Source: an uncultured Acidimicrobiia bacterium
GTDB lineage: Bacteria; Actinomycetota; Acidimicrobiia; Spongiisociales; ZC4RG35
Reading direction: 5' to 3'
Length of the DNA stretch: 64,000 bases
NCBI GenBank assembly: GCA_963744905.1
Contig: CAVUUV010000004.1
Location: 102,360-166,359, forward strand
In this document: in pieces, positions 34,043 through 58,657 of the stretch
Layout of the letters: every line of letters begins with the position of its first letter
Position numbering within the stretch: the first letter of the stretch is position 1
Notes under the pieces: model-generated
What the model was told of the DNA's origin: nothing
Database searches by the model: none
The model's input: the letters and a program-made list of their open reading frames with translations, nothing else
Made by a program: the position numbers and the translations under genes

Positions 34043-35432
34043 TCAGGGCCCGGACGGACACGGTGCAGCCAACAAGTGTCCTCCCGGAGTCGTGAAGTCG
34101 GTGAACCGGCAGCCGTAGTCGTCCTCGGCCACGACCGAGGGGTCGGACACGATGTCGCCGGCCGGTTTGACGCCGTTCTCAACCCAATTCACCAGGTCTG
34201 CGAAAGCCGTCACCAGTTCGGTGGGAGTGAAACCGCAATGATTCACCCCGCGTATCGCCCTCTGCACCAGGAGATCGCTCCTACCGGCTCGCTGCACTTC
34301 TCCCGCGTAGACGACTTCGTTGAGGAACGGGACGAACAGGTCACCCAGGTTGTGGAGTGTCAGCACCGGAACACGGATGTCACCTCGCACCACCGGTATC
34401 GGGTTCAGTGTCTCGGACCGGCGCAACCAGGGGGCGGCATCAACCCGCACGATCTGGTCGTTCAACTCCTGCTCGGCGACCGAGATGGCCGGGTCGAGGT
34501 CCATCTGGTATTGGGTATCCCGGTTGTCCGGGACCGTCCCGGGCTTGCCCGCCACGGTGCCGTCGCTGACACCGAGGTCGAACAGGAAGTTGCCGGCCCC
34601 GGACGCGATAGGAGGGGAATGTGTTCCAGAAGTACCAGGCCTGGTCGAAGTTGGGACGATCTCCGCCCGAACGCAACTCGACCAGCTGCTTGAAAGCCTG
34701 GCCGGTCGGGTTCAGGGCGAGAGGCCACCCTCCGGGGGTCGATTCCAGGTTGGCCTTGATGGCCGGCACGTCCGCCCCTATGTAGGTAGCGCCATCGGTG
34801 ACGGGAAAGCGCGACTCGCCCAAGCCGAGCTGCTGGGCGGCCACGTTGAAGTCCAGGAAGTAGTCGAACAGCTCGTAATCTCCCAGCACCCCGCACACGG
34901 CCAGGGCTCCGTCGTAGGTCTGGGGGTATTGCTCGACAGAGCGTGCGGTCACGTGACCACCCATCGACCCACCGGTCATGTAAGTGGTTTCAGGATGACC
35001 GAACTGCTGGCCGAACAAGCGGACCAGCGCCTCTGTGTCCCTGACGCCGTCCCCCACGTTGTAGTCGTTGGAAGAGAAGCTGGACGCCGCCCAGGCGAAG
35101 CCGTTGGCGAGGAGGTAGGGACGAAGCGGGTGATTGTCCACCGTCAGCTCGAGGCCGCTTCCCCGGAAGCCGTGGGCCCACATCACCAGCGACCCGTTCC
35201 AGTCGGCGGGCACCTCGATGCGATAGCCGGCGCCCTGGTTTACTCCCCACACCCTGGTGGTGTCTTCGAATCCGGGAAGGGGATCGAAGGGGAGCTCGGC
35301 TTGATCGACGAACCAGGCAGGTTCCGGTTGAGGGGGCCCGTTGGGACCCCAACCGGAACCGAGAGCCGAAATCGGGCCCAGGGTCAGGACCAGCAGGGCG
35401 ACAACGGCGGTGACGGTAGATATGCGTCGCAT
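34043..35432 (-). CDS. Secreted alpha/beta-hydrolase-fold esterase/lipase-like protein (apparent frameshift near 34600)
   Basis: A signal peptide and a GGSMGG nucleophile-elbow motif are present. The 330-aa ORF and the 170-aa ORF overlap in different frames and join at FWNTFPSY / ASGAGNFLFDLG. Confidence 0.6.
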
Positions 35433-35676: not shown

Positions 35677-36715
35677 TCAGATGAGCAGACGGTCCTCGTA
35701 CTCGACCCGGGACAGGAGGTGGGGCTCGCCGTCGGTGATGAGGATCATGTCCTCGATGCGGACCCCGCCCCCTCCCGCGCACCTCGGGGACCCAGACGAG
35801 GGGTTCGACTGCGAACACCATGTTGGGCTGGAACTGATAGACAGTGGCTCCGGGCAGAGTTTCGCCTATGTACGGAGGCTCGTTGGCGCCCATCCCTATG
35901 CCGTGCCCGATGAAGAGGCTGAACAGATGATCCTCGAGCCCATGATCTGCGACCTTGGCGATGATGGCGTCAGCACAGTCCTGATTGGTGAAGCCGGGCC
36001 GCATCTTCTCCACACCCGCCATCAGCCCCTCGTATACGGCCGTGTAGATCTTCTGCTGTTGTCTGGATGGTCGCCCCACGACCGTCGTCCGGCCGATATC
36101 GGCGAAATAGCCATTCCACATGGCGCCGATGTCGATGAAACACAGGTCCTGATTTCTGATGATCTTGTCCGTGGCGAGACGGTGAGGCGGGGACATGTGC
36201 TCTCCCGAGGCCACATAGGGGGTGATCACATGGGCCATCTCGCCTCCGAGACGGAAAAGGGTCTGCATGGCGTCGGCGGCCACTTCGAGCTCGCGCCGAC
36301 CCGCCCTCGTCTCGTCCAGAGCTCTCTGCGTGACAGAGTCTCCGATTGCGCAGGCCTCCTCGATCACCGCCACCTCGAGATCTGTCTTGATCCACCGCGC
36401 CTCGTGCATGATGGTGTCTCCGTCCACTACCTCCACATCGGGCAGGTGGGAGCGAAGAGCCTCGATGAACGAGATATTGGCCTGATCGACGGCCAAGACC
36501 CCCGTCTCGCGCTCGCGCAAGAGGGGCGCCAGCGTCTCCTTCACGAAGCCGTCGACCAATTCCCGTTGTTCCATGATGGGAACTGCATGGGCGGCGCCAA
36601 GCCAGCTCATCCCGTACCCGGCCTTGTCGATCTCTCCTCCCGAGGCCAGCAAGATTGGGTCCTCGTCGGAGAACAACAGGGCTCCGTTCAGGGAAGTCGT
36701 CTTACCGGCGATCAA
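35677..36715 (-). CDS. M24-family metallopeptidase/hydrolase (Xaa-Pro peptidase/creatinase fold), apparent frameshift near 35770
   Basis: The pita-bread-fold metal ligands lie in …DIGAMWNGYFADIGRT… and …HGIGMGANEPP…. The C-terminus …GVRIEDMILITDGEPHLLSRVEYEDRLLI* is readable in another frame after a G/C-rich run. Confidence 0.7.
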
Positions 36716-36954
36716 CTGGGCGCGAAGCGAGGTCAGGTAGCGGACGTTCTCGTCTTTCCATACCAGCAGTGCATCGGCGTTCGAATGGACAAGGGCCTCC
36801 TTCGCCTTACCCAGGCGCTGACGGCGTAGCCGGGCGAAGTCGTACCGATCTTCCCAGTCGACGGCGAACGGTCCCTTGGCATATCCAGTGATGTCGATGC
36901 TCCTGTCTTCTCAGGGGAGACGCGGCTCGGTGGCCGACACGATATAGGGTGACG

Positions 36955-38004
36955 TCATGGCTCTGGCACGTCCTGCAGCCGGTCGGAAATATCCAGCCGT
37001 TCGGCCACCTGCCGGAGTTGGTCGAGGAGGACGTCGGGAACCGGAATCCCTCTCCGGCGCTGAGCGACCTCCAACTCGATGGCACCGTCTCCGGGAAGAC
37101 GCACCGCTCCCGGCGGGCCGGCGGATCGAAGCGCCCCCAGATGCTCATCCACGGCCAGCTCGAACTCGTCCTGGGGCCGCATGAGATCGGGACGGAGCAC
37201 GAGGATCGCCTGGCCGGTGTTTGCCACCTCATCGGCCACCGCCCGATGGTCGATGACCTCGGCGCCGAAGGCCGCTCCATTGAGGACGCCGGCGAGCATA
37301 CCGATGGCCACATTGAGGCCCGACCCCTTGTAGCCACCGATCGGCATGAGAAAGCCCTCGTCTGCTCGGGCCGGATCCGTGATCGGCTGACCCCCGGAGT
37401 CGACGACCCACCCTTCCGGCAACGTCTGGCCGGCCTGTGCGAGCACCTTGATCGTCCCGTGCGAGGCCACGGTCGTGGCGATATCGAGCGCGAAGGTACT
37501 GGTGTGACCCGGAATGGCGATCGAGATGGGATTCGTGCCCAGCAGCCTCTGATCGCCTCCCCACGGTGGCATCACGTTGGCGCTCGCCACCGCCATGTAG
37601 ATGGCGATGAAACCCTCCCGCGCAGCCATCGTGGTGTAGACGCCGGCGGCACCGGCGTGGTTGGAGCGGACGGTGCCGACCCAGGCCATGCCCGATTCCC
37701 TTGCCTTGGCAATGGCCGTCTCGACCGCACGGGTCATGACTACCTGCCCGAGTCCATTGTCCCCGTCCACCAACGCCGAGACCGGCGTGTCCCGGGTGCA
37801 CACGATGCTCGGACGCAGATTGATTCCCCCCGCTTCGATCCTGGTGACATAAGGCGGCACCCGAATGATGCCGTGGCCCGTCCGCCCTCTGAGGTCCGCC
37901 TCCAGAAGGCGCTGGGCCGTGATCCGGGCCTGATCTGGCATGACGTCCAGGCTGGTGAACACATCTTCGACGAAGCTCTGGAGGCGCTCCAGTGAGAACC
38001 TCAT
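36955..38004 (-). CDS. Ldh_2-family oxidoreductase (malate/L-lactate dehydrogenase family 2; ureidoglycolate/sulfolactate/Pyr2C-reductase-like)
   Basis: 349 aa. The …RTGHGIIRVPPY…HAGAAGVY… pattern matches the Ldh_2 family. Confidence 0.75.
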   Translation of the reverse strand: MRFSLERLQSFVEDVFTSLDVMPDQARITAQRLLEADLRGRTGHGIIRVPPYVTRIEAGGINLRPSIVCTRDTPVSALVDGDNGLGQVVMTRAVETAIAKARESGMAWVGTVRSNHAGAAGVYTTMAAREGFIAIYMAVASANVMPPWGGDQRLLGTNPISIAIPGHTSTFALDIATTVASHGTIKVLAQAGQTLPEGWVVDSGGQPITDPARADEGFLMPIGGYKGSGLNVAIGMLAGVLNGAAFGAEVIDHRAVADEVANTGQAILVLRPDLMRPQDEFELAVDEHLGALRSAGPPGAVRLPGDGAIELEVAQRRRGIPVPDVLLDQLRQVAERLDISDRLQDVPEP

Positions 38005-38384
38005 TGCTGGAACTGCTCCACGGTCTCGCCCGTATCGGCAAACGTGCGGGTCACGTGCGTGTCCCCGTAAACCCAGAGGATTCGCATCCTGGAAGTGCCG
38101 CTGTTGATGAAGCGATGAAGCTCGCCGGGAGCGATCTGAGTCGTGTCATAGGGAACCGCTGGTCGTTGTTCGCCTTCGAGTTCGGCCAGACCCTCCCCTT
38201 CTATGACGGTCACCTGCTCGATCGTGTTGTGACTGTGAAGGCGAATCGAGGTTCCGGGCGGAAAGGTCGTGATGCCCATGGTGAAGCGTTGCCCTTGCAG
38301 CGGCAGGGGCGTCAGGCGCACGCTTTCGATCCCGTTCCCCCTCTCAACGGGTTCACTCTGGTCGAACTTCAGCAATCTGGCCAT
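38001..38384 (-). CDS. Cupin-domain protein
   Basis: 127 aa with two His-containing cupin motifs (…HSHNTIEQVTVIEGEG… and …GELHRFIN…). It overlaps Ldh_2 by 4 nt. Confidence 0.7.
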   Translation of the reverse strand: MARLLKFDQSEPVERGNGIESVRLTPLPLQGQRFTMGITTFPPGTSIRLHSHNTIEQVTVIEGEGLAELEGEQRPAVPYDTTQIAPGELHRFINSGTSRMRILWVYGDTHVTRTFADTGETVEQFQQ

Positions 38385-38408
38385 CGTCTCTCTCCTAGGG
38401 CTCGCGTG

Positions 38409-39152
38409 TCATGCCATGAACCTGCCCCCATTGACCGACACGGTCTGACCGGTCATGAAACTCGCCGACGGAGAGGCGAGGAATACCACCCACCGTGCGA
38501 TCTCATCGGGGCTCTGGTACCGGCCCAGCGGGATGGAGGCCGCCGTGGCACGGCGTTCCTCTTCGTCACGGACCTTCTCGATGCGCTCGGTCAGCACCGC
38601 CGACGGTGCCAGCGCGTTCACCGTTATCCCCAACGGGGCCAACTCGGAGGCCATGACCCTGCTGAGGGCGTGGACGCCCGCCTTGGCGGCCGCATAAGCC
38701 GGTGTGGTCCGATAGGTTGCCACCTGGCCGGCCAGAGAACCCAGATTGACCACGCTTGCCGCCGGCGAGCAACGCAGCCAGGGCAGCGCCGTCTGCGTCA
38801 TCAAGAAGACCGAGGTCAGGTTCAAATCGAGCGTCGCGTGCCATTCCGACAACGGGGCATCGGCCAGGCTCCTCTGGGCTGAGAAGCCGCCGGCATTGTT
38901 GACCAGCACATCCACCCGTCCCTCCGCATCGCCGATCTGTTGCAGGGCAGCCCGAACTTCGTCCGCCGAGGTGACATCGCAACCGATGAACCGCACCCTG
39001 GTGGTGTCTCGGGCCAGTTCGGTGCCCCTATCCGCATCGACATCCAGGGCGTAGACGAGATCTCCCTGGGCGGCGAAGGCAGTGACGATGGCTCGACCGA
39101 TGCCGATTGAGGCTCCGGTGACGATCACCACCCGCTCGTCGGCGGCACTCAC
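38409..39152 (-). CDS. SDR-family oxidoreductase
   Basis: The TGASIGIGRAI Rossmann motif and a YAAAK active-site motif are present. Confidence 0.85.
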   Translation of the reverse strand: MSAADERVVIVTGASIGIGRAIVTAFAAQGDLVYALDVDADRGTELARDTTRVRFIGCDVTSADEVRAALQQIGDAEGRVDVLVNNAGGFSAQRSLADAPLSEWHATLDLNLTSVFLMTQTALPWLRCSPAASVVNLGSLAGQVATYRTTPAYAAAKAGVHALSRVMASELAPLGITVNALAPSAVLTERIEKVRDEEERRATAASIPLGRYQSPDEIARWVVFLASPSASFMTGQTVSVNGGRFMA

Positions 39153-40069
39153 GACGCCACCAGCATCAGGATCTCATCGGAGACGGCAGATCGGGCCATG
39201 GCCATGGCGCCCTGTGACGCTTCGAGGAAGGAAGCTCTCTCTTCGTCGCCCAGATCGACGAAATGGGCCCCTTCGGCCTCCATTCGGCGACGGAGGGACT
39301 CCTCGTACCCGGCGGCGGCTATCCGCTGGACGGAAACGGCCGACCGTGCCCCCTCGGCCACGACTCGCCTGATCTCGGGCGAAAAGGACTCCCAGGTTGG
39401 CCGGTGGGCGAAGAGGCCCCGCGCCCCGTACAGATGCCCGGTCATGGTGACATGCGGATGGACCCGGTCGACCCCGTAGGCAACGGTGTTGGCCAGCGGA
39501 TTCTCCTGGGCATCCACCTTTCCATCGACGATCAAGCCGATTCCATCCTGAAGCTCCGCCGCAACCGGGACCGCACCCCACGACTCGAACAGTGCGACGT
39601 GGAAGGCGTTGGGCTGAAGCCGGACCGTCAGGCCACGACAGTCATCTGGGGTGCGAATCGGGCGCAACCGGTTGGTGAGATGACGAAACCCGTTGTCCCA
39701 AAACCCCAGCACCTCGAATCCGGTACTGGAGGCGACCGATTCTCTCAACGCCCCCCCGAGGCCACCGTCCAGCGCCTCGTGGGCCTGCTTTAGGTCTGCG
39801 AACAGGAAGGGGACATCGAGGACGTTGAGGTCGGGGACCCGGCTCCCCAGGTAGCTGCACGAGAAGTAGCACATGAACATCTCCCCCGCCTCCACCAGCC
39901 GGAACAGATCTGTGTTGGGCCGGCCCTCGTCCATGATGTTGTAGTTGATGGCAACACTCACCTGGTTGGCTGTGGCGGATTCCACGAACCGGCCGAAGGC
40001 GGCCAGGCCCTGGCCGTGGGCGCTTTCTCTGGGTCCATAGCCGCCGATGTGCAGTTCGATCTGGCTCAT
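39149..40069 (-). CDS. DctP-family (TRAP solute-binding protein) homolog with no signal peptide
   Basis: Core TRAP SBP motifs are conserved along the whole length (…LDVPFLF…GFWDNGFRHLTN…DGQENPLAN…). The ORF begins directly with the mature-domain sequence. An upstream stop leaves no room for a leader, and the gene is 77 bp from the divergent neighbour. Confidence 0.65.
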   Translation of the reverse strand: MSQIELHIGGYGPRESAHGQGLAAFGRFVESATANQVSVAINYNIMDEGRPNTDLFRLVEAGEMFMCYFSCSYLGSRVPDLNVLDVPFLFADLKQAHEALDGGLGGALRESVASSTGFEVLGFWDNGFRHLTNRLRPIRTPDDCRGLTVRLQPNAFHVALFESWGAVPVAAELQDGIGLIVDGKVDAQENPLANTVAYGVDRVHPHVTMTGHLYGARGLFAHRPTWESFSPEIRRVVAEGARSAVSVQRIAAAGYEESLRRRMEAEGAHFVDLGDEERASFLEASQGAMAMARSAVSDEILMLVAS

Positions 40070-40146
40070 CTGTCTCGCAAAAGAGGCTGCTCGCGACGAA
40101 TCGTATATGATGTAGGATCAGGCTGTCGAACGGACAGGAGTAGCTG

Positions 40147-41382
40147 ATGGCTCAAGAACCTTGGAAGACCGAGCAATGGTTTTCCAGTCCCTGGAACTAC
40201 CTACCGGAGGTCACAGAGGGGTTTCAAGTTCCCGACGAGGTACGTATCCACGATGTGACCTTGCGGGACGGGGAGCAGCAGGCCGGTGTCGAGTTCACCG
40301 CCGACGAGAAGGTGCAGATCGCCGAAGCGCTCGCCGAGGCCGGTATTCATCGCATCGAGGCGGGCTTGCCCGCAGTCTCCCCGGCCGACAAGGAGGCCAT
40401 CGAGCGGATGGTGGCGGCCGAGCTGCCGACAGAGATCTATGCCTTCAGCAGATGCCTGGTCTCGGACGTGGAATTGGCCCTCGATTGTGGGGTGTCGGGT
40501 GTGGTGATGGAGGTTCCCGCCAGCCATCACTTGATCGAGAAGGCTTACCGGTGGCCGGTGGAAAAGGCGATCGACGCCTCCGTCGAGGCAACCAAGTACG
40601 CCCACGACAATGGGCTCAAGGTGACGTTCTTTCCCATCGACGCCACGAGAGCGACGATGACCCAGCTCCTCGATGACCTCGAGACGGTGGCTACCAATGG
40701 TCATGTCGACAACATCGCCCTCGTCGACACCTTCGGAGTGACGTCTCCCCATGCCATCCGCTACTACACCCGCAAAGTCCGAGAGCGTTTCCCTGGCGTG
40801 CCGCTCGAGACCCATTTCCACATGGACTTCGGTATGGGGGTGGCGAACACGGCCCTGGCCGTGACAGAGGGCGCCTCCGTTCTCCACACCACCGTCAGCG
40901 GGATCGGCGAGCGGGCCGGAAACGCTCCCACGGAGGAGACGGTGCTGGCCCTTTTGACCATGTACGGAATCGACACCGGCATCAACACGGAGAGGTTCAC
41001 CGACATCGCACGACTGGTGGCCGAGCTCTCGGGTGTCACCCAGCCCGCCAATCGCCCGGTCACCGGCGAGATGCTGTACAACGTCGAATCGGGCATCATC
41101 GCCACCTGGGTCAACAACGTGGGCGACGAGCTGCTCGAGCCCTTCCCTTACCGTCCCGAGCTGGTCGGCCAGGCCGACCCGAGCATCGTCCTCGGAAAGG
41201 GCTCGGGGCTCGACTCCATTGCCATCTGGCTGGCCCGGCACGGCATCAACGACGCCGAGACCAAGGAGATCGAGGCGATCCTGGCCGAGGTGAAGGGTCG
41301 GTCTTTGGCCAAGAAGGGCCTGTTGGACGACGACGAATTCCTCGACGTCGTCCGCCAAGTCATCCCCGACAAGGTCAACTGA
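40147..41382 (+). CDS. DRE-TIM metallolyase (HMGL-like/pyruvate carboxyltransferase domain; IPMS/homocitrate synthase/4-hydroxy-2-oxovalerate aldolase-like)
   Basis: DVTLRDGEQ… and …HFHMDFGMGVANTLAA… are hallmark motifs of the family. Confidence 0.75.
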   Translation: MAQEPWKTEQWFSSPWNYLPEVTEGFQVPDEVRIHDVTLRDGEQQAGVEFTADEKVQIAEALAEAGIHRIEAGLPAVSPADKEAIERMVAAELPTEIYAFSRCLVSDVELALDCGVSGVVMEVPASHHLIEKAYRWPVEKAIDASVEATKYAHDNGLKVTFFPIDATRATMTQLLDDLETVATNGHVDNIALVDTFGVTSPHAIRYYTRKVRERFPGVPLETHFHMDFGMGVANTALAVTEGASVLHTTVSGIGERAGNAPTEETVLALLTMYGIDTGINTERFTDIARLVAELSGVTQPANRPVTGEMLYNVESGIIATWVNNVGDELLEPFPYRPELVGQADPSIVLGKGSGLDSIAIWLARHGINDAETKEIEAILAEVKGRSLAKKGLLDDDEFLDVVRQVIPDKVN

Positions 41383-41409
41383 AAACAGGCGTCTGAGGGA
41401 GCAGTATTC

Positions 41410-42648
41410 ATGCGAGAAGCATTTTTCGGTCTGAGCACCGACTGGAAGGAAGGGATCAACTGGGCCAACGTCAGGGACTGGCGGCTCAAGAGGGCGCACG
41501 AGGCCATGGAGCGGCACGGTCTCGGGGCGCTACTGCTGTTCTATGACGAGAACATGCGATACGTGTCGTCGACCCTGACGCCCGGGTGGAACCGTCTCAA
41601 GCCCGGTCTGCGCTACGTGGTGCTGCCGGCGGGAAAGCCTCCCATCGTGTACGAGCAAGGCGACATCGGCATGCACCTCGAGGTCCACAATCCATGGATC
41701 CCAAAGGAGAACATCCGCCACTCCTACATATGGATCAAGGGAGCCGTCGGTCCGGCCGCCGACCAACAGGTCACGAAGTTCGTGGACGCCCTCTTGAACG
41801 ACCTGGAGGAGGCCGGGGTCCGGGATCAACCACTCGGAGTCGACTTCATCGACATCAACCTCTTGCGGGCGTTTCAAGAACGGGGAATCGAATGGACCGA
41901 TGGTATGTCGCCCATGATGGAGGCGAGGGCCATCAAGTCCCCCGACGAGATCAAGGCGTTTCAGATCGTCGGAGCCATCTGCGACCGGGTGCACTACGAG
42001 ATAACGAACTTCATGAAACCCGGCATGACCGAGAACGAAGTGGCGGCTTTTGGATTCGAGCAGCTCTACTCGATCCCGGGGATGGAAGACGTCGAGGACG
42101 TCATCGTGTCTTCGGGTCCCAACGCCTGGCCCAACTGGCGCAACTTCTCCGACCGCATGATCCGTCCTGGCGAGCTCGTCATCATCGACCTGGCCGCTCT
42201 GACCTGGAACGGGTTCAAGTCCTGCGTCTATCGAACCTACTGCGTGGGCGGCAAACCCACCGATGAGCATCAGCAGGCCTACGACATGGCCCACAAGTGG
42301 CTGTGGGATTCGATCGAAGCCACCAAGCCCGGGGTAACGACAGCCGACGTCGCCTCCAAATGGCCCTCGGCCAAGGAGGCATGGGGATACGAGGAAGAGG
42401 ACCGTGCAGCAGCCAACAACTGGGGCCACGGGCTGGGCCTCGCCCAGTACGACCCGCCGGTGATATCCCGGATCTGGTCCCTCGATCACCCGGTCGAGAT
42501 CCAGCCGGGCATGACCTTCGCTCTGGAAACCCAGCATGGCAAGGTACACGATTACGGGGTGCGTCTCGAAGAGATGATCTACGTCACGGACACCGGCATC
42601 GAGCTCGTATCGACGTACAAGAACCACGAGATCATCGTCATCGACTGA
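41410..42648 (+). CDS. M24-family hydrolase (creatinase/prolidase/ectoine-hydrolase-like fold)
   Basis: It has a creatinase-like N-domain plus pita-bread C-domain (…IIDLAALTWNGFKSCVYRTY…HGLGLAQYDPP…ETQHG…). Confidence 0.75.
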   Translation: MREAFFGLSTDWKEGINWANVRDWRLKRAHEAMERHGLGALLLFYDENMRYVSSTLTPGWNRLKPGLRYVVLPAGKPPIVYEQGDIGMHLEVHNPWIPKENIRHSYIWIKGAVGPAADQQVTKFVDALLNDLEEAGVRDQPLGVDFIDINLLRAFQERGIEWTDGMSPMMEARAIKSPDEIKAFQIVGAICDRVHYEITNFMKPGMTENEVAAFGFEQLYSIPGMEDVEDVIVSSGPNAWPNWRNFSDRMIRPGELVIIDLAALTWNGFKSCVYRTYCVGGKPTDEHQQAYDMAHKWLWDSIEATKPGVTTADVASKWPSAKEAWGYEEEDRAAANNWGHGLGLAQYDPPVISRIWSLDHPVEIQPGMTFALETQHGKVHDYGVRLEEMIYVTDTGIELVSTYKNHEIIVID

Positions 42649-42658
42649 CGCCAGGGTC

Positions 42659-44341
42659 GTGCGATATCCCGATCGACTGGCCGCTGCCCATCTGAGCCCT
42701 GAAGGGTCGCTGCTCATCGGGCTCGACGACGATCGCTGTCTCGATCACCGGCTGGTCGGCGCCAAGGCGGCCCGGCTGGCCAGGGCACGCCGGACAGGAA
42801 TCCCGGTCCTTCCCGGATTCGTCGTGAACGGTTCCGCCTCAACCCACCACATGAAGATCGGCGCCGCTGCGCTGACCAGGCGGGGCTCGGGAGGGGCACG
42901 CCTGGAGATGATGTCCGAGCCTCTGCCCATCGCCGACGATCTGGTCGCGGCCGGATCCCGTCTCGGTCCCCGGCTGGTGGCCCGCTCCTCCACCAGTCTC
43001 GAGGCATCGGGCCGGTGGTCGGGCGCCTTCACCTCGTATCTGGACCTGACTCCCGACGAACTGCCCAGGGCGATCGTCGGATGCTGGGCGTCGGCCTTCT
43101 CCGTGCAGGCAATCAGCCGGCAGCGAGCCGAGAACATCGAGCCCGGCTCCTTCCCGATGAGCGTTCTGGTCCAACCTGCCCTGTCTCCTGCGTCGGGCGG
43201 GACGGCGATGCTCGACGAGGGGGGGCGGGTGACGGTCCATACCGTCGAGGGCTCACCCGCCCCGCTGCTCCAGGGGTGGTCACAGGGTGCTGAGGCACGA
43301 TGGGACGGCCGGTGGATCGGCGAAGAGGCCATCTCCCTGCTGGGAGCCGACCGACTCGACGCCATCGCCTCGCTCCTGAGGCGAGCCCACCAGGTCGTCG
43401 GTGCCGACCGCTGCGAATGGGCACTGGACGACGACATCTGGATTCTGCAGTTGGACTCCGTACCCGCTCCCCCAGCCCTCGATCAGTTCATCGCCCAGCC
43501 TCGAGAACTCGACCCCATTCTGCTCGATGTGGCACGCACGGTTACCAGAGCCCCGGGCGCCCTCGGCGAAGAACTCGTTCTCCCCTGGGCTCTGGCGGGC
43601 CTCCCCCGAACCCTGACATCCTCCGTCGAGAGGCCGGCGACTGCGCTGGCCCGAGCCCGCCACCTGTGCGAGGAGTTGACGGCCGAAGTATGGGGATGTG
43701 CCGCCCCCCAAGCGCGATCATTGGCCCTGGAAACCCTGGAACGACTTCGCACCGGCGATCCCTCACCTGCGCTGGCCCGCATCCGGCGGCTTCGTCCCCC
43801 CGACACAGCGAAGGCGACGACGCTTCTGTCCCTGGTGGACGGCATGCGCCAGGCCCTGGTAGGACTGGGCGCTTTCCCCGACCCCGGCTCGGCCTGGTAC
43901 GCCACGACTCACGAGGTCGAACGGGCGGCACAGAAGACCCCCACAAGTGCGGTCGACCGCGTCGGTGTCTCCGGCTGGGAACCTTTCGTGGCCTCCGTAG
44001 TCCTGGCCGGAGGACACCGTCACCGGGGCACCCCGGCGGCCCCCGGCATCGGGGCGGGCCGACGGCACTCGATCAATGGACCCGACGAGGCCGCCTGGTT
44101 CTCGCCCAGGGAAGTGATCGCCACTCCACAACCCGTCCCCAACCTGGCCCCGTTCCTGTGGGATTCGGCGGGATTGGTGACAGAATCGGGATCCCCGGCC
44201 GCCCACCTCTTCGAGTCCGCCCGGTCTCTGGGAGTACCGGCTGTGTGTGGAGTGTCGTCGGGGGAGACCGACGACGAGATCGTGGCGGTGGACGGCTATT
44301 CGGGAGTCGTCTCTACCACTCCCCTGTTCGGAGAAGCATGA
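42659..44341 (+). CDS. PEP-utilising-enzyme family protein: PPDK_N (ATP-grasp) domain + C-terminal mobile phosphohistidine domain, with no PEP/pyruvate-binding TIM barrel
   Basis: The N-terminal …LVGAKAARLARARRTGIPVLPGFVV… resembles the PEP synthase/PPDK nucleotide-binding region. The C-terminal …ESGSPAAHLFESARSLGVPAVCGV… resembles the swivel phospho-His domain. The protein ends about 60 residues later. Confidence 0.65.
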   Translation: MRYPDRLAAAHLSPEGSLLIGLDDDRCLDHRLVGAKAARLARARRTGIPVLPGFVVNGSASTHHMKIGAAALTRRGSGGARLEMMSEPLPIADDLVAAGSRLGPRLVARSSTSLEASGRWSGAFTSYLDLTPDELPRAIVGCWASAFSVQAISRQRAENIEPGSFPMSVLVQPALSPASGGTAMLDEGGRVTVHTVEGSPAPLLQGWSQGAEARWDGRWIGEEAISLLGADRLDAIASLLRRAHQVVGADRCEWALDDDIWILQLDSVPAPPALDQFIAQPRELDPILLDVARTVTRAPGALGEELVLPWALAGLPRTLTSSVERPATALARARHLCEELTAEVWGCAAPQARSLALETLERLRTGDPSPALARIRRLRPPDTAKATTLLSLVDGMRQALVGLGAFPDPGSAWYATTHEVERAAQKTPTSAVDRVGVSGWEPFVASVVLAGGHRHRGTPAAPGIGAGRRHSINGPDEAAWFSPREVIATPQPVPNLAPFLWDSAGLVTESGSPAAHLFESARSLGVPAVCGVSSGETDDEIVAVDGYSGVVSTTPLFGEA

Positions 44342-45216
44342 TGTCTGCGCGGGTGGGAATCATCGGGCTCGGGGTCATGGGTGCCGCCATGGCCAAGAAT
44401 CTCCTCGCGGCCGATCATGAAGTACTCGGGTTCGATCTCGCTCCCCACAGGAGACAGATCGCCACCGACGCCGGTGTCAGCGTCCTGGCGAATGCGGCTG
44501 CGGTGGCCAAGCGAGCAGACACGGTCGTCTTCTCCCTTCCCACCGTCGAGGCCCTGGCGGCGGTGGCCGACGAGGTCGCCGCCAATGCCCATGCCGAATT
44601 GCTCTGCCTCGAAACCGGCACGTTCCCGCTCGTCGCCAAGTTCTCTGCCCGCGATGTGCTGGCGGCAGCCGGGATCGAACTGATGGACACGGCGCTGTCG
44701 GGCACCGGCCTACAGGCAGCAGACGGAACACTGGTCGTGTTCGCATCGGGAACGCCGGAAGCGTTCGAACGAGCCCAGCCGGTCTTCCGTGCCATCGGCC
44801 GGTCAACGCATTACCTGGGGGAATTCGGCAACGGCTCCAGGATGAAATACATCGCCAACCTTCTGGTGACCATCCACAACCTGGCCACCGCCGAGGCCCA
44901 CGTTCTCGGAATGGCCGCCGGAATGGACCCCGCCGTCGTCCAGGAGGTGATGGAAGACGGCGTCGGCTCCTCGAAGATCTTCGAGATCAGGGGCCCGATG
45001 ATGGTCGCCGGCGATTACCCGGCCGCGGCCCGGCTGGACATCATCCTCAAAGACGCCCGCATCATCGAAGACTTCGCCCAAAGCGTGGGGGCTCCGACCC
45101 CGCTCCTCGATGCGGCGCTCGAGGTCTACACCCGGACCAGCGCAGCCGGTATGGGGGATTTCGACGCGGCCGTCTTGTTCGAGTACCTACGCAACCAAGC
45201 CGGACTCGAACGATGA
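44338..45216 (+). CDS. NAD(P)-dependent oxidoreductase, 3-hydroxyisobutyrate/6-phosphogluconate dehydrogenase-like (HIBADH family)
   Basis: RVGIIGLGVMGAAMAKNL is an NAD-binding motif. The length is 292 aa. Its start overlaps the upstream stop in an ATGA arrangement. Confidence 0.8.
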   Translation: MMSARVGIIGLGVMGAAMAKNLLAADHEVLGFDLAPHRRQIATDAGVSVLANAAAVAKRADTVVFSLPTVEALAAVADEVAANAHAELLCLETGTFPLVAKFSARDVLAAAGIELMDTALSGTGLQAADGTLVVFASGTPEAFERAQPVFRAIGRSTHYLGEFGNGSRMKYIANLLVTIHNLATAEAHVLGMAAGMDPAVVQEVMEDGVGSSKIFEIRGPMMVAGDYPAAARLDIILKDARIIEDFAQSVGAPTPLLDAALEVYTRTSAAGMGDFDAAVLFEYLRNQAGLER

Positions 45217-47498
45217 TCGGTCGGCCGCTTCGCCGCCTCGAGGATTCCCATCTGATCACCGGCAGAGGACGTTACGTCGACGACATCTCACTCCCCTCCA
45301 CGGCCCACGCCGTCTTCGTCCGTAGTGTCGAGGCCCATGCCCTGATCCGATCGGTGAGCCTCGACCAACGCGACGCCGGTCGGGCCCGACTCTTTGGGCC
45401 TCGCGAGCTCGGCCTGACGGCCCCGGTCCAGAACCAGCATCCCTCCCCACTGATCGAGCGCTCCACACAGGCTCCACCCCTGTCCGACCACGAGGTGTGC
45501 TTCGTTGGCCAGCCGATAGCCGTGGTCGTGGCTCCGACGGCTCAGGAGGCAACCGATGCAGCCGGTGCCGTTCTGATCGACTACGAACCGCTCCCGACGA
45601 TGACAGATCATCGTCGGGCATTGGACGTAGATGCCCCTCCCGTGCATTTGGGAGGTGACGGCAACCTCATCGCCACTCTCAGCGCCTCCTTCGGCGAGGT
45701 CGAGGCCGGGTTCGCCACAGCACCTCGAAGGCTGGCCCTGGACGTGGATCAACACCGGGGGGCGGGCGCCTCGATGGAGGGCCGGGCGATCCTGGCTAGT
45801 TGGGAAGAGGGAGAGCTGAAGCTGTGGACTTCGACGCAGGCACCCTATGCGGTTCGAAGCCATCTGGCGTCATATCTCGGTTTGAAGCCCGATTCCGTAA
45901 GGGTGATCGCACCGGATGTCGGGGGTGGCTTCGGGCCGAAGGCAGCCGTCTACCCCGAGGAGTACGTCGTTGCGGCCCTGGCCATTCATCTGAGACAACC
46001 CGTCAAGTGGATCGAACAGCGCCGCGAGAACTTCACGGCCACCTACCAGCAGCGCGGCCAGAGCGGCCGGATCGAGGTGGCCTTCGACGACAACGGAAGG
46101 GTCCTGGCCCTTCGCGCCCACCTCACACACGACTGCGGTGCCTTCGTGCCTTACGGGATCGTGGTCCCCATGACAACGCTCCGTCTGATGTCGGGCCCCT
46201 ACCGGATCCCCGCCCTGGAGGCGACGATCGAATGCGTGTTCACCAACGCCACTCCGACCGCAGCCATCAGAGGGGCCGGCCGACCCAATGCCTGCTTCGC
46301 GCTGGAGCGGACGATGGATGCGATCGCCCGATCGCTGAACCTGGAGAGGGAGACGATTCGGCGTCGCAACTTCATACCCGTCGATGCCCTTCCCTATCAG
46401 GTCGATATCCCCGGCTCGGACGGTCGGCCCATCACCTACGACAGCGGAGATTTCACCCGGGCGCTCGATGCGGCGCTGGAGGCGGCGCGAATCGACGATT
46501 TCCCGAGCCGCCGGGAAGTCTCGGAGCGGAGCGGCCTTCGGCGCGGATACGGCATCGCCTCGTACATCGAAGACACCGGGATGGGCCCCTTCGAAGGAGC
46601 CCGGATCGAGATTCTCGCCGGCGGAGAGGTCCTGGTCGAGACCGGAGCCGGAGCCCAGGGTCAGGGACATGAGACCGTCTTCGCCCAGATATGTGCCCAG
46701 CACCTGGGCGTCGAACCGGGCCGAGTGAGGGTCAGGAGTGGAGACACCGCCTTCTACAGCCACGGCGTCGCCACCGTTGCCAGCAGGACCGGTCAGACCA
46801 CGGCCGCCGCCGTCAGCGTGGCGGCCGAAGAGCTCGCTTCGATCACCAAGGAACTGGCTGCCGACGAGCTCGAGGCTGCATTCGAGGACATCGCCCTCGA
46901 AGGGGGCATGGCCATGGTTGTCGGCCAACCTGGTACCGAGATTCCCTTCGCCGACCTGGTGAGCCGCCTGTCCCGGGCGGATGCGTTCCCCACCCGTCTG
47001 CGAAGGCCCGGGCTCTCGGTGGAACGGGTCGTCCCCTTCGGCGGACTCGGATTCACATACGGGACCCACGTCGCCGAGGTCGAGGTCGATCCCGAGACCG
47101 GACATGTCAGGGTGGTCGGATACATCGTGGTCCACGACTGTGGCACGTTGATCAACCCGATGATCGTCGACGGCCAGATCGACGGCGGGGTGGCGCATGG
47201 ATTGGGTAACGCTCTGATGGAGCGCGTCCAGTTCTCCGACTCCGGCCAGCCGCTGACGACTTCTTTCATGGACTACCACCTGATGACGGCGGTTGAGATG
47301 CCGCCCTTGGTCAAGACGCACACCGTTACGCCCTCTCCCAACAATCCTCTTGGAACAAAGGGGGCTGGCGAGGGCGGCACGATCCCGGCGGCTGCCGCCG
47401 TGACATCGGCCGTCGAGCACGCTCTCTCCGACCGGGGTGTGATCGTGAATCACTACCCGGTTGAGATGCAGTGGGTGCAGAAGGCCGCCACCGGCTGA
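45213..47498 (+). CDS. Xanthine-dehydrogenase-family molybdopterin-binding large subunit (CoxL/aldehyde-oxidase-like)
   Basis: 761 aa. The N-terminal …RLEDSHLITGRGRYVDD… region and the Mo-cofactor domain motifs (…GGGFG…, …GEGGT…) are present. No small or medium subunit genes are adjacent. Confidence 0.85.
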   Translation: MIGRPLRRLEDSHLITGRGRYVDDISLPSTAHAVFVRSVEAHALIRSVSLDQRDAGRARLFGPRELGLTAPVQNQHPSPLIERSTQAPPLSDHEVCFVGQPIAVVVAPTAQEATDAAGAVLIDYEPLPTMTDHRRALDVDAPPVHLGGDGNLIATLSASFGEVEAGFATAPRRLALDVDQHRGAGASMEGRAILASWEEGELKLWTSTQAPYAVRSHLASYLGLKPDSVRVIAPDVGGGFGPKAAVYPEEYVVAALAIHLRQPVKWIEQRRENFTATYQQRGQSGRIEVAFDDNGRVLALRAHLTHDCGAFVPYGIVVPMTTLRLMSGPYRIPALEATIECVFTNATPTAAIRGAGRPNACFALERTMDAIARSLNLERETIRRRNFIPVDALPYQVDIPGSDGRPITYDSGDFTRALDAALEAARIDDFPSRREVSERSGLRRGYGIASYIEDTGMGPFEGARIEILAGGEVLVETGAGAQGQGHETVFAQICAQHLGVEPGRVRVRSGDTAFYSHGVATVASRTGQTTAAAVSVAAEELASITKELAADELEAAFEDIALEGGMAMVVGQPGTEIPFADLVSRLSRADAFPTRLRRPGLSVERVVPFGGLGFTYGTHVAEVEVDPETGHVRVVGYIVVHDCGTLINPMIVDGQIDGGVAHGLGNALMERVQFSDSGQPLTTSFMDYHLMTAVEMPPLVKTHTVTPSPNNPLGTKGAGEGGTIPAAAAVTSAVEHALSDRGVIVNHYPVEMQWVQKAATG

Positions 47499-47522
47499 GT
47501 CCGCCAACCAAAGGAGACAGGC

Positions 47523-48302
47523 GTGGACCTAGGAATCTCGGGCAAGAAGGCCCTGCTGACGGCATCCAGCCGGGGCCTGGGCAAAGCCTGTGCCATTGCC
47601 CTGGCAGCAGAAGGAGTGAACGTGGTCATCAACGGCAGGGACGAGGCCACCCTGGAGGCGTCGGCCGAAGAGATCAGGCACCGATTCGACGTAGAGGTGC
47701 TGGGCGTCCCCGCCGACATCAACTCCGATCAGGGCCGACAGAGTCTGCTGGAGAGCTGCCCCGATCCCGACATTCTCGTCAACAACAACTGGGGGCCTCC
47801 ACCAGGCGCTTGGGAGGACTTCGAATACGACGACTGGCTGGGAGCCGTAGAGGCGAACATGCTGGCACCGATAATGATGATCAAGGGGGTGATCGCCGGG
47901 ATGAAGGAGAGGCGCTTCGGGCGAATCGTCAACATCACCTCCCAGATGGTCAAGTCACCCTTTCGGGTGATGGGACTCTCGGCCGGCGCCCGTACCGGGC
48001 TGACTGCCGCAGTGAAAGTGCTGTCCCGTGATGTGGCCCGCTTCAATGTCACCATCAACAACCTCCTCCCTGAACGGATAGACACCGAACGTCAGGTGTA
48101 CATGGCCAGGAGGCAGGCCGAATCCGCCGGTATCACCTATGAGGAGGCGCGGCGCCAAATCGTCGACAGCATCGCCGCCCAGCGCATGGGCCGGCCCGAG
48201 GAATTCGGGGCCGCCTGTGCCTTCTTGTGCGGCGCCGACTCGGGATACATCTCCGGCCAGAACCTGCAGCTGGACGGGGGATCCTATCGAGGCACGTTCT
48301 GA
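47523..48302 (+). CDS. SDR-family oxidoreductase (3-oxoacyl-ACP reductase-like)
   Basis: The Gly-rich loop is TASSRGLGKAC and the family core is present. The likely start is the GTG at 47523. Confidence 0.75.
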   Translation: MDLGISGKKALLTASSRGLGKACAIALAAEGVNVVINGRDEATLEASAEEIRHRFDVEVLGVPADINSDQGRQSLLESCPDPDILVNNNWGPPPGAWEDFEYDDWLGAVEANMLAPIMMIKGVIAGMKERRFGRIVNITSQMVKSPFRVMGLSAGARTGLTAAVKVLSRDVARFNVTINNLLPERIDTERQVYMARRQAESAGITYEEARRQIVDSIAAQRMGRPEEFGAACAFLCGADSGYISGQNLQLDGGSYRGTF

Positions 48303-48432: not shown

Positions 48433-49704
48433 TTGAAACCCAACCTCCTCAAATGGGGGCGGCGGGCGGTAGTGGACGTCCGGCCGCTCCGGCTCGTTCC
48501 CGGATACAGATGGCTGTTCGCCGGGCTGTTCTTCGGACAGGCAGGACGGCAGATGACGGTGGTGGCCGTTCCGTTCCAGGTGTTCGAACTGACCGGATCC
48601 ACCCTGGCGGTGGGTCTGCTTGGTCTCACTCAGCTCGTGCCGCTGCTGGTGGTATCCCTGGTTGGAGGCGCCTTGGCCGATGCGGTGGATCGCCGCAAGC
48701 TTCTTTCGTTCTCACAGGTGATTCTCGCCCTGACCGGGGTCGGCCTGTTGTGGAATGCCGCCGCCGACTCTCCCCTCCTCTGGCCACTCTTCGTCCTCAG
48801 CGGGCTGAATGCAGCGGTTTCGGCCGTCGACTCTCCCGCCCGCCAAGCCGTGCTGCCGGGCCTGGTGGGGCGCGGGCTCCTCCCATCCGCTCTGGCCCTC
48901 AATCAGACCCTCGGGAACGTGGCCAAGGCGGCCGTGCCGGCCGCCGGCGGTCTCCTGATCGCCACGGCCGGACTTCCGTTCAGCTACGGCGCGGTGACTG
49001 TCATGTTCGTCGCCAGCGGCATCTTGTTCTACCGGATTCCCAGCCTTCCCGTCGAGGGAGGAAAAGGACGTTTCAACATCTCCTCGATCGTCGACGGCCT
49101 CCGTTATCTAGGGTCCCGTCGACTCATCCAGGCGGCCATGCTCATCGACCTCAACGCGATGGTGTTCGGAATGCCCACTGCCCTATTCCCCGCCATCGGT
49201 ACCCAGATCTTGGACGGGGACGCCTTCACGGTCGGCCTGCTCTACGCCGCCCCCGGGGCGGGAGCCCTCTTCGCTGCCCTCACTTCGGGCTGGGTTGCCT
49301 CGGTTCGTCGCCACGGCCGAGCCGTGATCATGGCCGTCATCGGATGGGGCCTGGCCATCGCCGTGTTCGGCCTGACCGCCTCGACCGCTCTGGCCCTTGC
49401 GATGCTGGCGATCGCCGGCGGCGCAGACGTCGTGTCCGCCATCTTCCGGAACACCATCGTCCAGATGTCCACCCCCGACGCGTTCCGGGGCCGGCTGATG
49501 TCGATGCACATAGCGGTAGTGGCGGGCGGGCCCCGGCTGGGAGACCTGGAGGCAGGGGTGGTCGCCTCGCTGGCCTCGATCAGGTTCTCGGTCGTCTCGG
49601 GTGGGATCGTGTGTGTCCTCGGTGCCCTGGCAATTACCCGCTGGGCGCCTTCTCTGGCCGCATACAGCTACGAGCCCGACGGCGGCGGCGCGATGGCACC
49701 GTGA
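48433..49704 (+). CDS. MFS transporter (EntS/efflux-like)
   Basis: 423 aa with 12 TM helices and an N-terminal basic region. Confidence 0.8.
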   Translation: MKPNLLKWGRRAVVDVRPLRLVPGYRWLFAGLFFGQAGRQMTVVAVPFQVFELTGSTLAVGLLGLTQLVPLLVVSLVGGALADAVDRRKLLSFSQVILALTGVGLLWNAAADSPLLWPLFVLSGLNAAVSAVDSPARQAVLPGLVGRGLLPSALALNQTLGNVAKAAVPAAGGLLIATAGLPFSYGAVTVMFVASGILFYRIPSLPVEGGKGRFNISSIVDGLRYLGSRRLIQAAMLIDLNAMVFGMPTALFPAIGTQILDGDAFTVGLLYAAPGAGALFAALTSGWVASVRRHGRAVIMAVIGWGLAIAVFGLTASTALALAMLAIAGGADVVSAIFRNTIVQMSTPDAFRGRLMSMHIAVVAGGPRLGDLEAGVVASLASIRFSVVSGGIVCVLGALAITRWAPSLAAYSYEPDGGGAMAP

Positions 49705-52479: not shown

Positions 52480-52596
52480 ATGGTTATCAATGCTAACTGT
52501 GGACCGGCTCCATCGTGTGGATGCTCGCCGCCCCGGGAAGCGATCGAGCCGGTGGGAGCGAGGCATCTACGATCTCGTCAACAACCCACAGGAGTC

Positions 52597-58616: not shown

Positions 58617-58657
58617 CGTCCCTCCTGGCCAGAAGACATTTCTAGGCTGTATCTTGC

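Follow-up and report, generated by a model that had tools for sequence, protein, structure and literature searches.

The question addressed here is what is encoded by two divergent operons in the genome of an uncultured Acidimicrobiia bacterium (ZC4RG35; assembly GCA_963744905.1, contig CAVUUV010000004.1), within a stretch of 64,000 nt that is referred to below as the window. The G+C content of the window is 65%, and the proteins of the region are almost identical to those in uncultured Acidimicrobiia. A preliminary description had pictured a catabolic locus built around a phosphoenolpyruvate (PEP)-dependent phosphotransfer enzyme, a DctP homologue without a signal peptide, and an orphan subunit of a molybdenum hydroxylase. 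The present analysis places the centre elsewhere, in the invariant pairing of an M24 protein (M24b) with the phosphotransfer enzyme, in the altered catalytic residues of M24b and of an HMGL-like protein, and in the extreme conservation of these two. The cluster probably specifies a route, not described before, by which a small organic acid is activated so that it can be broken down, and the best-supported reading is a dikinase-initiated catabolic pathway with the ATP-grasp and swivel domains on one chain and an acceptor site that would be supplied in trans. The best explanation, put forward tentatively and with somewhat less than even confidence, is a catabolic island controlled by a GntR-type regulator, in which two proteins would together form the engine, an ATP-dependent small-molecule dikinase in a new arrangement. 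The features needed first are the following, with the number of loci, out of about 76, that carry each family.

40070-40146, no strand: divergent promoter region of 77 bp, with a conserved element at 40100-40145
40147-41382, + strand: HMGL-like protein, a DRE-TIM protein resembling IPMS and homocitrate synthase (PF00682, 219 bits; 63 of 76 loci)
41410-42648, + strand: M24b, a DddP-like pita-bread protein (PF00557; 76 loci)
42659-44341, + strand: dikinase, with ATP-grasp, helical middle and swivel-His parts on one chain (PPDK_N, PF01326, and PEP-utilizers mobile domain, PF00391; 76 loci)

The comparison set consisted of 80 loci from species-representative genomes together with three neighbourhoods for which precomputed Pfam annotation existed; genes were compared by tblastn and by clustering of the called open reading frames (ORFs), and family frequencies were counted over about 76 loci. 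The dikinase has hundreds of homologues, the named ones of which are nearly all from Acidimicrobiia. The window protein is 99% identical to that of a metagenome-assembled genome (MAG) at NCBI, and 94% identical to that of MAG MFD02923.bin.1.45 (locus L004). The possibility, raised in the preliminary description, that the gene set is not kept together in other genomes is contradicted by these data, as the neighbourhood is conserved in about 80 loci, nearly all in Acidimicrobiia MAGs from soil and marine sources. At least 20 loci share a canonical order of about 20 genes, which to the left of the point of divergence reads GntR, HpcH aldolase, ACMSD-like, GFO, FMN_dh, Ldh_2, cupin, SDR and DctP, and to the right HMGL, M24b, dikinase, HIBADH, CoxL, MFS2, (SDR2), MFS, ACMSD-like, EamA, GntR and Zn-ADH. 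Since this order recurs in loci whose proteins are only 50-75% identical, the gene arrangement is far above chance. The window carries the canonical stretch from Ldh_2 to Zn-ADH, and the cluster therefore reaches about 53.6 kb. The earlier claim of a conserved, co-transcribed cluster matching no characterised pathway is supported, in that no NCBIfam equivalog cut-off was reached by any of the scanned proteins, and a literature search for this combination of genes found no direct description of it.

Within this neighbourhood, M24b lies immediately 5' of the dikinase gene, on the same strand, at every locus that covers the position, and the adjacency also holds in loci binned to Eremiobacterota and Dormibacterota. 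The constancy of the pairing is unmatched by any other gene. Locus L004, the core proteins of which are 94-99% identical to those of the window, lacks the DctP-SDR-cupin-Ldh_2 operon, CoxL and SDR2, so that these accessory modules must have been gained or lost recently. The core of the cluster is M24b and the dikinase, commonly preceded by the HMGL-like gene, and the DctP operon, HIBADH, CoxL and the SDR genes are accessory. This applies equally to the signal-less DctP homologue and the molybdenum subunit, to which the preliminary description had given a central place; they occur at 30 and 28 of about 76 loci, respectively, and both are absent from the 94%-identical L004.

A much reduced version of the cluster was seen in three sponge-associated and marine MAGs (L001, L007 and L018), where a minimal trio of M24b, dikinase and HIBADH is divergent from an Opp-type ABC transporter, itself adjoined by genes for GRDB/Gly_reductase-like and RidA-like proteins. 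These surroundings differ from what is seen in soil loci, and they hint that the substrate in those organisms derives from an amino acid.

What kind of phosphotransfer enzyme is it? The dikinase carries an ATP-grasp domain of the PPDK_N type and a C-terminal swivel domain with a catalytic histidine. The swivel His516 ('GSPAAHLFESAR') and the ATP-grasp motif 'ARSSTxLE' are invariant among orthologues. The term PEP-dependent has to be given up: Pfam returned PF01326 and PF00391 alone, without the PEP/pyruvate-binding TIM barrel PF02896, the swivel domain is the last part of the chain, and among known structures the protein is nearest to the ATP-grasp domains of rifampin phosphotransferase (RPH) and HpeI. 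PEP synthase, PPDK and PEP-dependent enzymes in general were rejected as identities on account of the absent PEP-binding domain, and the NCBIfam PEP-synthase models gave at most 67 bits against cut-offs of at least 598. To judge from its sequence, the protein is an ATP-dependent small-molecule dikinase like RPH and HpeI. In such enzymes the swivel histidine passes the beta-phosphate of ATP to an acceptor held on a separate domain or subunit (PMC12167813).

The dikinase chain has no recognisable place for that acceptor. An AlphaFold model (predicted local distance difference test score 83) resolved three parts, with ATP-grasp at residues 19-266, an all-helical stretch at 286-451 and swivel at 453-555; no acceptor domain of the rifampin-binding type was found on the swivel chain, the middle (286-451) being a helical insert of 165 aa, and only 294 residues of the dikinase align to full-length RPH. 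The insert is also missing from some orthologues. In three independent MAGs (L078, at 10001-11119, L080 and L081) the orthologue is only 372 aa long, window residues 267-437 are gone, and the ATP-grasp domain (18-266) is fused straight to the swivel domain (438-555), with the gene placed directly after that of an 88%-identical M24b. Other orthologues (e.g. P0056 and P0081) are missing about 30 residues of the helical middle domain. As the middle domain is absent from the three short proteins, the acceptor site cannot lie on that dikinase chain.

By far the best candidate for an acceptor site in trans is M24b, which is constantly adjacent to the dikinase gene, is strongly constrained in sequence and has a metal site; that some dikinase orthologues have lost the middle domain points the same way. 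The closest solved relatives of M24b are the DddP structures 4S00 and 4RZY, which align over its full length (residues 17-404; 99 bits), whereas the score to the DddP family model NF043017 is 115 bits against a cut-off of 600. Its metal-site residues are D260, C272, H340, E373 and E387, with a cysteine in place of the second aspartate, and this set is invariant in 72 of 72 orthologues; the all-carboxylate/histidine ligand set of DddP (D,D,H,E,E) is not found in M24b. Equally invariant (72/72) is Gln346, at a position occupied by Asp in 4RZY and by Asn in the variant entry 4S01, which we take to be that of the DddP catalytic base Asp377. The DddP tyrosine that is presumably Tyr366, with a role that we assume from the mutant entries 4S00 and 4S01, is likewise not kept. 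Among solved structures DddP (4S00, 4RZY and 4B28) is closest to M24b over the whole chain, N-terminal domain included, and DddP itself is a non-peptidase member of M24, which catalyses a beta-elimination on a carboxylate substrate bound at its dimetal site. The two differ in that most of the MAGs carrying M24b come from soil, where dimethylsulfoniopropionate (DMSP) is not expected. DMSP lyase was rejected as the identity of M24b, given the score far below cut-off, the cysteine ligand, the glutamine replacing the catalytic aspartate, and the mostly soil-derived MAGs.

The orthologues of M24b form essentially one cluster at 50% identity, and the next relatives are no more than 42% identical. 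At E-values up to 1e-30, about 240 such clusters are related to it. The cysteine at the second ligand position was common to 25 of the 28 distant relatives that were sampled, none of which reaches the cut-off of a curated family. A large and taxonomically broad clade of M24 proteins of 410-450 aa (P0127-P0270 and P0271-P0388) shares the motif 'C-x-Y-R-T', with Cys for the second metal-binding Asp; it belongs to no curated family, and its members are annotated as Xaa-Pro aminopeptidases.

The sequence constraint on M24b is exceptional. Its mean identity to the window protein is 87%, with 199 of 412 columns invariant, and the HMGL-like protein is next at 83% (172 of 411 columns); the dikinase averages 48% (34 of 560), and the other cluster proteins 61-67%. 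Across genomes (L002-L083) the ranges are 83-91% for M24b and the HMGL-like protein, 40-57% for the dikinase, and 45-78% for the other cluster proteins. Recent horizontal transfer was considered as a cause of the 87-91% identities and rejected. Third-base identity at conserved four-fold codons was 0.33-0.5, alike in all genes and near our composition-only estimate; as these sites are saturated just as in neighbouring genes, the high identity of M24b and the HMGL-like protein reflects purifying selection. Constraint of this kind fits the presence of extra interaction surfaces on both proteins.

The HMGL-like protein has kept the 2-oxo-acid/metal site of a well-known enzyme group and lost its acetyl-CoA-enolising dyad. 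Homocitrate, 2-isopropylmalate and citramalate synthases are its best relatives, and it has in common with them the DRE-TIM motif and the metal-binding histidines. Among solved structures homocitrate synthase 6KTQ comes closest (190 bits), and the best NCBIfam scores, 309 bits for NF002085 and 283 bits for NifV, fall short of cut-offs of 517 and 463, respectively. The motifs 'DVTLRDGEQ' and 'GIGERAGNA' are kept, as is the metal His pair ('HFH'/'HFHMD'), and DVTLRDGEQ and HFHMD are invariant. In MtIPMS, SpHCS and LiCMS, a Glu-His dyad enolises acetyl-CoA. Alignment to 6KTQ, 3RMJ, 3A9I and 3BLE showed that 'ED' has become 'ID' and 'SG(I/V)H' has become 'ESGII' (Ile318), so that both dyad positions are isoleucine, a state that is invariant in all 57 orthologues. 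The protein is therefore unlikely, on its sequence, to be an acetyl-CoA-dependent synthase, and an acetyl-CoA-dependent alkylmalate synthase was rejected as its identity on the same replacement. It differs further from the synthases in having no LeuA regulatory domain, and all of its family scores are below cut-off.

Taken together, these properties suggest the following scheme. The beta-phosphate of ATP would be passed to His516 of the dikinase, with release of AMP and Pi, and from His516 to a substrate bound in the metal site of M24b; the D-C-H-E-E site would hold a hydroxy-carboxylate. Once its hydroxyl is phosphorylated, the phosphate would be eliminated by M24b, giving an ATP-driven dehydration, or beta-elimination, of a free acid, in effect a lyase reaction like that of DddP in which phosphate is the group that leaves. 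An enoate or 2-oxo acid would result and would pass to the HMGL-like protein, with its 2-oxo-acid/metal site kept and its acetyl-CoA-enolising dyad lost. The variable periphery would then lead to central metabolism by way of the beta-hydroxyacid, Ldh_2, SDR and Zn-dependent dehydrogenases, the ACMSD-like decarboxylase, the molybdenum-dependent aldehyde/heterocycle oxidoreductase subunit and, in other genomes, the HpcH aldolase.

Several observations favour this scheme. M24b keeps four metal ligands and has an invariant cysteine, and aligns end to end with a lyase; one conserved promoter/operator element is common to both operons. An elimination is proposed because DddP provides a lyase precedent, HIBADH brings in a theme of 3-hydroxy acids, and no conventional sugar-acid dehydratase family is among the annotated recurrent families of the neighbourhood. 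The surroundings point to a hydroxy-carboxylate as substrate, comprising a cytosolic DctP-type protein with both of its arginines, a GntR/FCD regulator, the HIBADH, Ldh_2, 2-hydroxyacid, FMN and GFO dehydrogenases, and the HpcH aldolase.

Other points weigh against it. Docking of the swivel domain on M24b is a prediction, and, with Gln at the position of the DddP base Asp377 and Cys as one ligand, the lyase chemistry is an analogy and not a conserved mechanism. The role of M24b could be that of a hydrolase or a phosphatase that works ahead of the kinase or behind it, and for the short dikinases the gene of the acceptor protein could lie at another place in the genome. No fusion of M24 with a dikinase was present in the 150 best family representatives, nor was a dikinase found beside distant M24 relatives of the cysteine type in the five contexts examined (M20 and a DDAH-like gene; TctABC and PrpD; a molybdopterin oxidoreductase; AFOR and a thiolase; and one that was uninformative). 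A metagenome scan with a single protein gave one locus. The ACMSD-like decarboxylase, the molybdenum subunit and the dikinase precedents in the literature all speak for a phenolic or heteroaromatic substrate and not for an aliphatic hydroxy acid, and the source genomes are all uncultured MAGs. A bolder proposal would be that M24b and the dikinase make up a new kind of enzyme, in which a phosphohistidine swivel domain reaches into a pita-bread metal site to give a CoA-independent dehydratase or lyase, with ATP driving the phosphorylation and loss of an unactivated hydroxyl on a free carboxylic acid and the HMGL-like protein perhaps using the enol or enol-phosphate that results; in this full form we place little confidence in it.

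The remaining genes of the cluster, which bear on the alternatives, are as follows (loci again out of about 76).

About 35677-36900, - strand: M24a, a canonical prolidase/creatinase-type M24 protein, disrupted (PF00557, 142 bits; 10 loci)
36955-38004, - strand: 2-oxo/2-hydroxy acid dehydrogenase of the Ldh_2 family (PF02615, 349 bits; 40 loci)
38001-38384, - strand: small metal-binding cupin of 127 aa (PF07883, Cupin_2)
38409-39152, - strand: SDR oxidoreductase SDR1 (PF13561/PF00106; 41 loci)
39149-40069, - strand: candidate cytoplasmic ligand-binding protein of the DctP family (PF03480, 175 bits; 30 loci)
44338-45216, + strand: beta-hydroxyacid dehydrogenase of the HIBADH type (PF03446 and PF14833, NAD_binding_2/11; 37 loci)
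45213-47498, + strand: CoxL-like molybdenum-binding large subunit of the xanthine dehydrogenase family (PF01315/PF02738/PF20256; 28 loci)
47523-48302, + strand: SDR oxidoreductase SDR2, accessory (PF13561; 9 loci)
48433-49704, + strand: MFS transporter, MFS_3/EntS-like (PF05977, 136 bits; 27 loci)
49757-50755, - strand: ACMSD-like decarboxylase of the Amidohydro_2 family (PF04909; 54 loci)
50797-51786, + strand: transporter of the EamA family (PF00892; 27 loci)
51787-52566, - strand: GntR/FCD transcriptional regulator, syntenic (PF00392 and PF07729)
52600-53598, + strand: Zn-dependent alcohol/polyol dehydrogenase (Zn-ADH), syntenic (PF08240 and PF00107; 36 loci)

Pfam and NCBIfam scans, with the ORF listing, reproduced all eleven of the domain calls made earlier, and the listing bore out the divergent two-operon layout. 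The claimed 4-nt overlaps (ATGA or GTGA) are present at DctP/SDR, cupin/Ldh_2, dikinase/HIBADH and HIBADH/CoxL, the HIBADH gene having ATGA overlaps at both ends, and the remaining gene junctions are gaps of 10-27 nt. One listed gene, the leftmost M24 hydrolase, is not intact. Relative to orthologues of 84% identity, the reading frame of M24a is shifted by one base within a run of G at about 35770-35787, the tblastn match to the L016 orthologue being divided between two frames; where the orthologues start, M24a has GAC/ATC after AGGAG, with no ATG, GTG or TTG. The ligands D,D,H,E,E can still be read in its sequence. The gene beside it, for a tannase-like secreted protein (DUF6351; 34043-35432, - strand), is also frameshifted, near 34640, and the two are either decaying pseudogenes or the result of homopolymer errors in the assembly. 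Close to the tannase-like gene is one for a PKD/alpha-beta-hydrolase protein (31675-33873), and the pair suggests extracellular ester hydrolysis next to the cluster.

Do the two operons belong to one system? The non-coding element at 40100-40145, ATCGTATATGATGTAGGATC...CTGTCGAAC...AGGAG (also written ATCGTATATGATGYAGGATC...CTGTCGAAC...AGGAG), is unique in the window, with 0 occurrences expected by chance. Its 18-mer core is found exactly, once per locus, at 27 loci, in each case upstream of the HMGL-like gene by 45-60 nt, and remains exact although the flanking proteins (L002-L071) are only 60-90% identical. From its sequence it reads as overlapping divergent promoters of the sigma-70 type, with a leftward -35 of TCGACA and -10 of TACGAT and a rightward -10 of TATGAT, and it probably includes an operator. 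Loci without the leftward operon retain the core of the element alone, which argues that the two operons are co-regulated; in L004, one such locus, the AT-rich core is degenerate. No Rfam match to the element was found, even at E-values up to 10, and a riboswitch in the 45 conserved nt that precede the HMGL-like gene was rejected, given also the promoter-like sequence and a hairpin that is weakly maintained. A second copy of the core with 2 mismatches (CATATATCATGCA) occurs at 58655-58667 (- strand), about 40-50 nt upstream of a carboxymuconolactone-decarboxylase-family (CMD) gene (58104-58616); about 0.5 such matches are expected by chance, and the copy hints at a shared regulon. The preliminary description had reported no regulator within the cluster. 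This stands for the interval 35677-48302, and fails for the conserved neighbourhood as a whole, which includes the GntR/FCD gene at 51787-52566; its product is 72-76% identical to that of the syntenic gene of other loci and has 33 matches to the regulator family.

These data bear on the alternative that there is no single pathway here, and that independent operons simply adjoin one another (core trio, DctP operon, molybdenum/SDR genes, and a block of transporters and regulator), or that the core trio is housekeeping or biosynthetic and the MFS_3 and EamA proteins are exporters. Modules have indeed been gained and lost independently, L004 differs from the window despite a core identity of 94-99%, and an identity level of 87% is one usually shown by housekeeping proteins. 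MFS_3 (EntS-like) and EamA proteins are, moreover, often exporters. Independent operons would leave unexplained the persistence of one order of about 20 genes, in at least 20 loci, where proteins are 50-75% identical and synonymous sites are saturated, the 4-nt overlaps that run from the dikinase through CoxL and, in L026, on to the second MFS gene, and the single conserved promoter element serving both divergent operons. The flanking genes, too, are of catabolic type, and the GntR/FCD gene is syntenic. We regard this alternative as quite unlikely.

The accessory genes were searched for clues to the substrate, and these divide between hydroxy or acid-sugar compounds and hydroxy-aromatic ones. 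The lack of a signal peptide on the DctP-like protein is confirmed, as the maximal ORF is 323 codons and the domain starts at residue 12, while in orthologues free of over-extended ORF calls no more than about 10-20 residues come before the first beta-strand, and these have neither signal peptide nor lipobox. The fold is complete (PF03480, 175 bits, profile positions 5-279 of 286), and R129 and R150 are invariant; these we take, by the motif of SiaP, to be the carboxylate-binding arginines. Genes for DctQ and DctM were found neither among the families kept around the 30 DctP loci nor among the annotated window genes at 28-63 kb. Because it has no signal peptide or lipobox, and no DctQ/DctM in the conserved neighbourhood, the protein is, on sequence criteria, a cytoplasmic ligand-binding protein and not a transporter subunit. 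It shares its full-length fold and both arginines with the solute-binding proteins (DctP) of transporters of the tripartite ATP-independent periplasmic (TRAP) type but has neither their export signal nor their DctQ/DctM partners. Its nearest solved structures are TRAP binding proteins, for several of which bound pantoate or erythronate, mostly co-purified, has been reported (PMC11668362).

The best solved relative of the Ldh_2 protein is L-sulfolactate dehydrogenase (2X06, 223 bits), with NCBIfam matches all below cut-off, and the same holds for the NCBIfam matches of Zn-ADH. The cupin shows G-x5-HxH-x3-E-x6-G and H-x3-N. The best NCBIfam match of HIBADH is L-threonate dehydrogenase (179 bits, cut-off 350), the HpcH protein of other loci is nearest to 2-dehydro-3-deoxyglucarate and HpaI aldolases, and the GFO protein to inositol and xylose dehydrogenases. 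Likenesses of the Ldh_2, Histidinol_dh and DctP proteins raised the possibilities of sulfonate (sulfolactate or dihydroxypropanesulfonate) and pantothenate catabolism, for which no evidence of a desulfonating enzyme or of a pantothenase type was found.

The tetronate pathway for L-threonate and D-erythronate proceeds by the logic of LtnD, OtnK, OtnC and OtnI. A variant of this acid-sugar pathway could be built from the accessory genes, with HIBADH oxidising the acid, the cupin as isomerase, the dikinase replacing the DUF1537 kinase, the ACMSD-like enzyme replacing the decarboxylase, and M24b and the HMGL-like protein in unrelated side roles. The L-threonate dehydrogenase match of HIBADH would fit, as would the erythronate or pantoate with which some of the nearest solved DctP relatives were crystallised, and the GFO, HpcH (2-dehydro-3-deoxyglucarate-aldolase-like), Ldh_2 and GntR/FCD genes are typical of acid-sugar loci. 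The family scores, however, are all far below cut-off, HIBADH and DctP are themselves accessory, and no role would be left for the two proteins that are most constrained and most constant in the cluster, which makes this variant highly doubtful.

The aromatic clues come mainly from the CoxL-like and ACMSD-like proteins. The description of the former as an orphan is correct locally: no ORF of the CoxS type, with its [2Fe-2S] clusters, exists in any frame of the 64 kb, and the CoxS-type double-cluster motif occurs only at six divergent loci. Without an Fe-S or FAD partner nearby, molybdenum-dependent hydroxylation is unsupported as the central step. The NCBIfam scores of the subunit, both below cut-off, are to carbon monoxide dehydrogenase group 5 (665 bits) and the glyceraldehyde dehydrogenase alpha subunit (543 bits). 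Its loop reads 'AIRGAGR', which, on the loop definitions that we assume, resembles form II CoxL; the form I loop AYxCSFR is not present. The ACMSD-like gene is the most frequent accessory gene, often in two copies and also in other phyla, and the closest structures to its product are ACMSD (176 bits), followed by gamma-resorcylate and 5-carboxyvanillate decarboxylases.

That a PEP-synthase-like phosphorylation can initiate catabolism, in one case together with a molybdenum hydroxylase, was correctly anticipated. HpeHI, CreHI and PpsAB open catabolic pathways by dikinase phosphorylation (PMC12167813), and the 3-hydroxypyridine molybdenum hydroxylase HpdA of Ensifer needs a PPDK-like pair (bioRxiv 10.1101/2020.01.08.898148). 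The N-heterocycle idea of the preliminary description can be updated accordingly into a pathway for phenols or hydroxy-N-heterocycles, in which the dikinase alone phosphorylates an aromatic hydroxyl, as do HpeHI, CreHI and PpsAB, the molybdenum subunit hydroxylates the ring, the ACMSD-like enzyme removes the carboxyl group of a hydroxy-aromatic acid, M24b acts downstream as an amidohydrolase or as the phosphatase, and the dehydrogenases and aldolase take the products of ring cleavage. The characterised catabolic relatives of the dikinase do all act on phenolics or aniline (PMC12167813), and the dependence of the Ensifer hydroxylase on its PPDK-like pair is a second precedent. The prominence of the ACMSD-like gene would be accounted for, as would a PF22607 flavin monooxygenase gene beside the HMGL-like gene in two or three loci (also at 60795-61976 in the window), a cyclase/arylformamidase-like gene at 9 loci, and the tannase-like secreted esterase genes just upstream in the window. 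Against these stand the restriction of CoxL to 28 of about 76 loci, without Fe-S/FAD partners and with none in the 94%-identical relative, the absence of a conserved family of ring-cleavage dioxygenases, bar the 127-aa cupin, and the absence of a carboxylase following the kinase, unlike the Hpe, Acv and Pps pathways. Neither the inseparability of M24b and the dikinase nor the binding of substrate by the 372-aa orthologues is explained. The heterocycle and molybdenum scheme is possible, draws on accessory genes, and is judged unlikely.

Further downstream, between 53630 and 63112, the window contains other genes of catabolic type, for a family III CoA-transferase, an enoyl-CoA hydratase, a GFO oxidoreductase, an Amidohydro_1 protein, CMD, a D-2-hydroxyacid dehydrogenase, a small cupin, the PF22607 flavin monooxygenase and a CinA/MoCF_biosynth protein. 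Of these families, those of the 2-hydroxyacid dehydrogenase and of GFO are seen again at other loci.

If the bolder proposal for M24b and the dikinase is right, it would amount to a means of activation not known before and widespread among soil Acidimicrobiia; the class is abundant in soils and sponges and almost uncultured. Dikinase-initiated catabolism has recently been recognised as a general strategy, for phenol, cresol, acetovanillone and 3-hydroxypyridine; the known cases all carry their own acceptor domain, to which the present cluster would add a partner in the form of an M24 metalloprotein, and probably a different class of substrate. There are also consequences for annotation. Two subfamilies with changed hallmark residues and exceptional purifying selection are mislabelled by automatic procedures, as 'M24 peptidase/DddP-like' and 'isopropylmalate/homocitrate synthase', and metagenome surveys could miscount M24b as a DMSP lyase and the HMGL-like protein as an enzyme of leucine or lysine biosynthesis. 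The signal-less DctP protein and the syntenic GntR regulator are practical handles by which the substrate could be sought through ligand screening.

The precise relationship to known systems can be drawn from two comparisons. The 3hpd cluster of Ensifer adhaerens likewise has a molybdenum enzyme of the xanthine dehydrogenase family beside PEP-synthase-like phosphotransfer proteins, which are genetically required for the HpdA reaction. Its hydroxylase has four components, including Fe-S, FAD and SRPBCC subunits, whereas the large subunit stands alone here and is accessory; its kinase consists of two separate proteins rather than a single chain, and its description mentions no M24 or DRE-TIM partner of the kind found here. 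RPH and the pairs HpeHI, CreHI, PpsAB and AcvAB resemble the present dikinase in the ATP-grasp domain, the swivel phosphohistidine domain and the conserved catalytic histidine. The four pairs are also encoded in catabolic operons, and the same conversion of ATP to AMP and Pi with formation of a phospho-substrate would be expected here (PMC12167813). The domains are divided differently, however, with ATP-grasp and swivel on one chain in the present case, no acceptor domain of the RIF-binding type, and a helical insert that is missing from some orthologues. The carboxylase or P450 that follows the kinase in those systems has no counterpart here, and no described member has what is constant in this cluster, an M24 pita-bread protein as partner.

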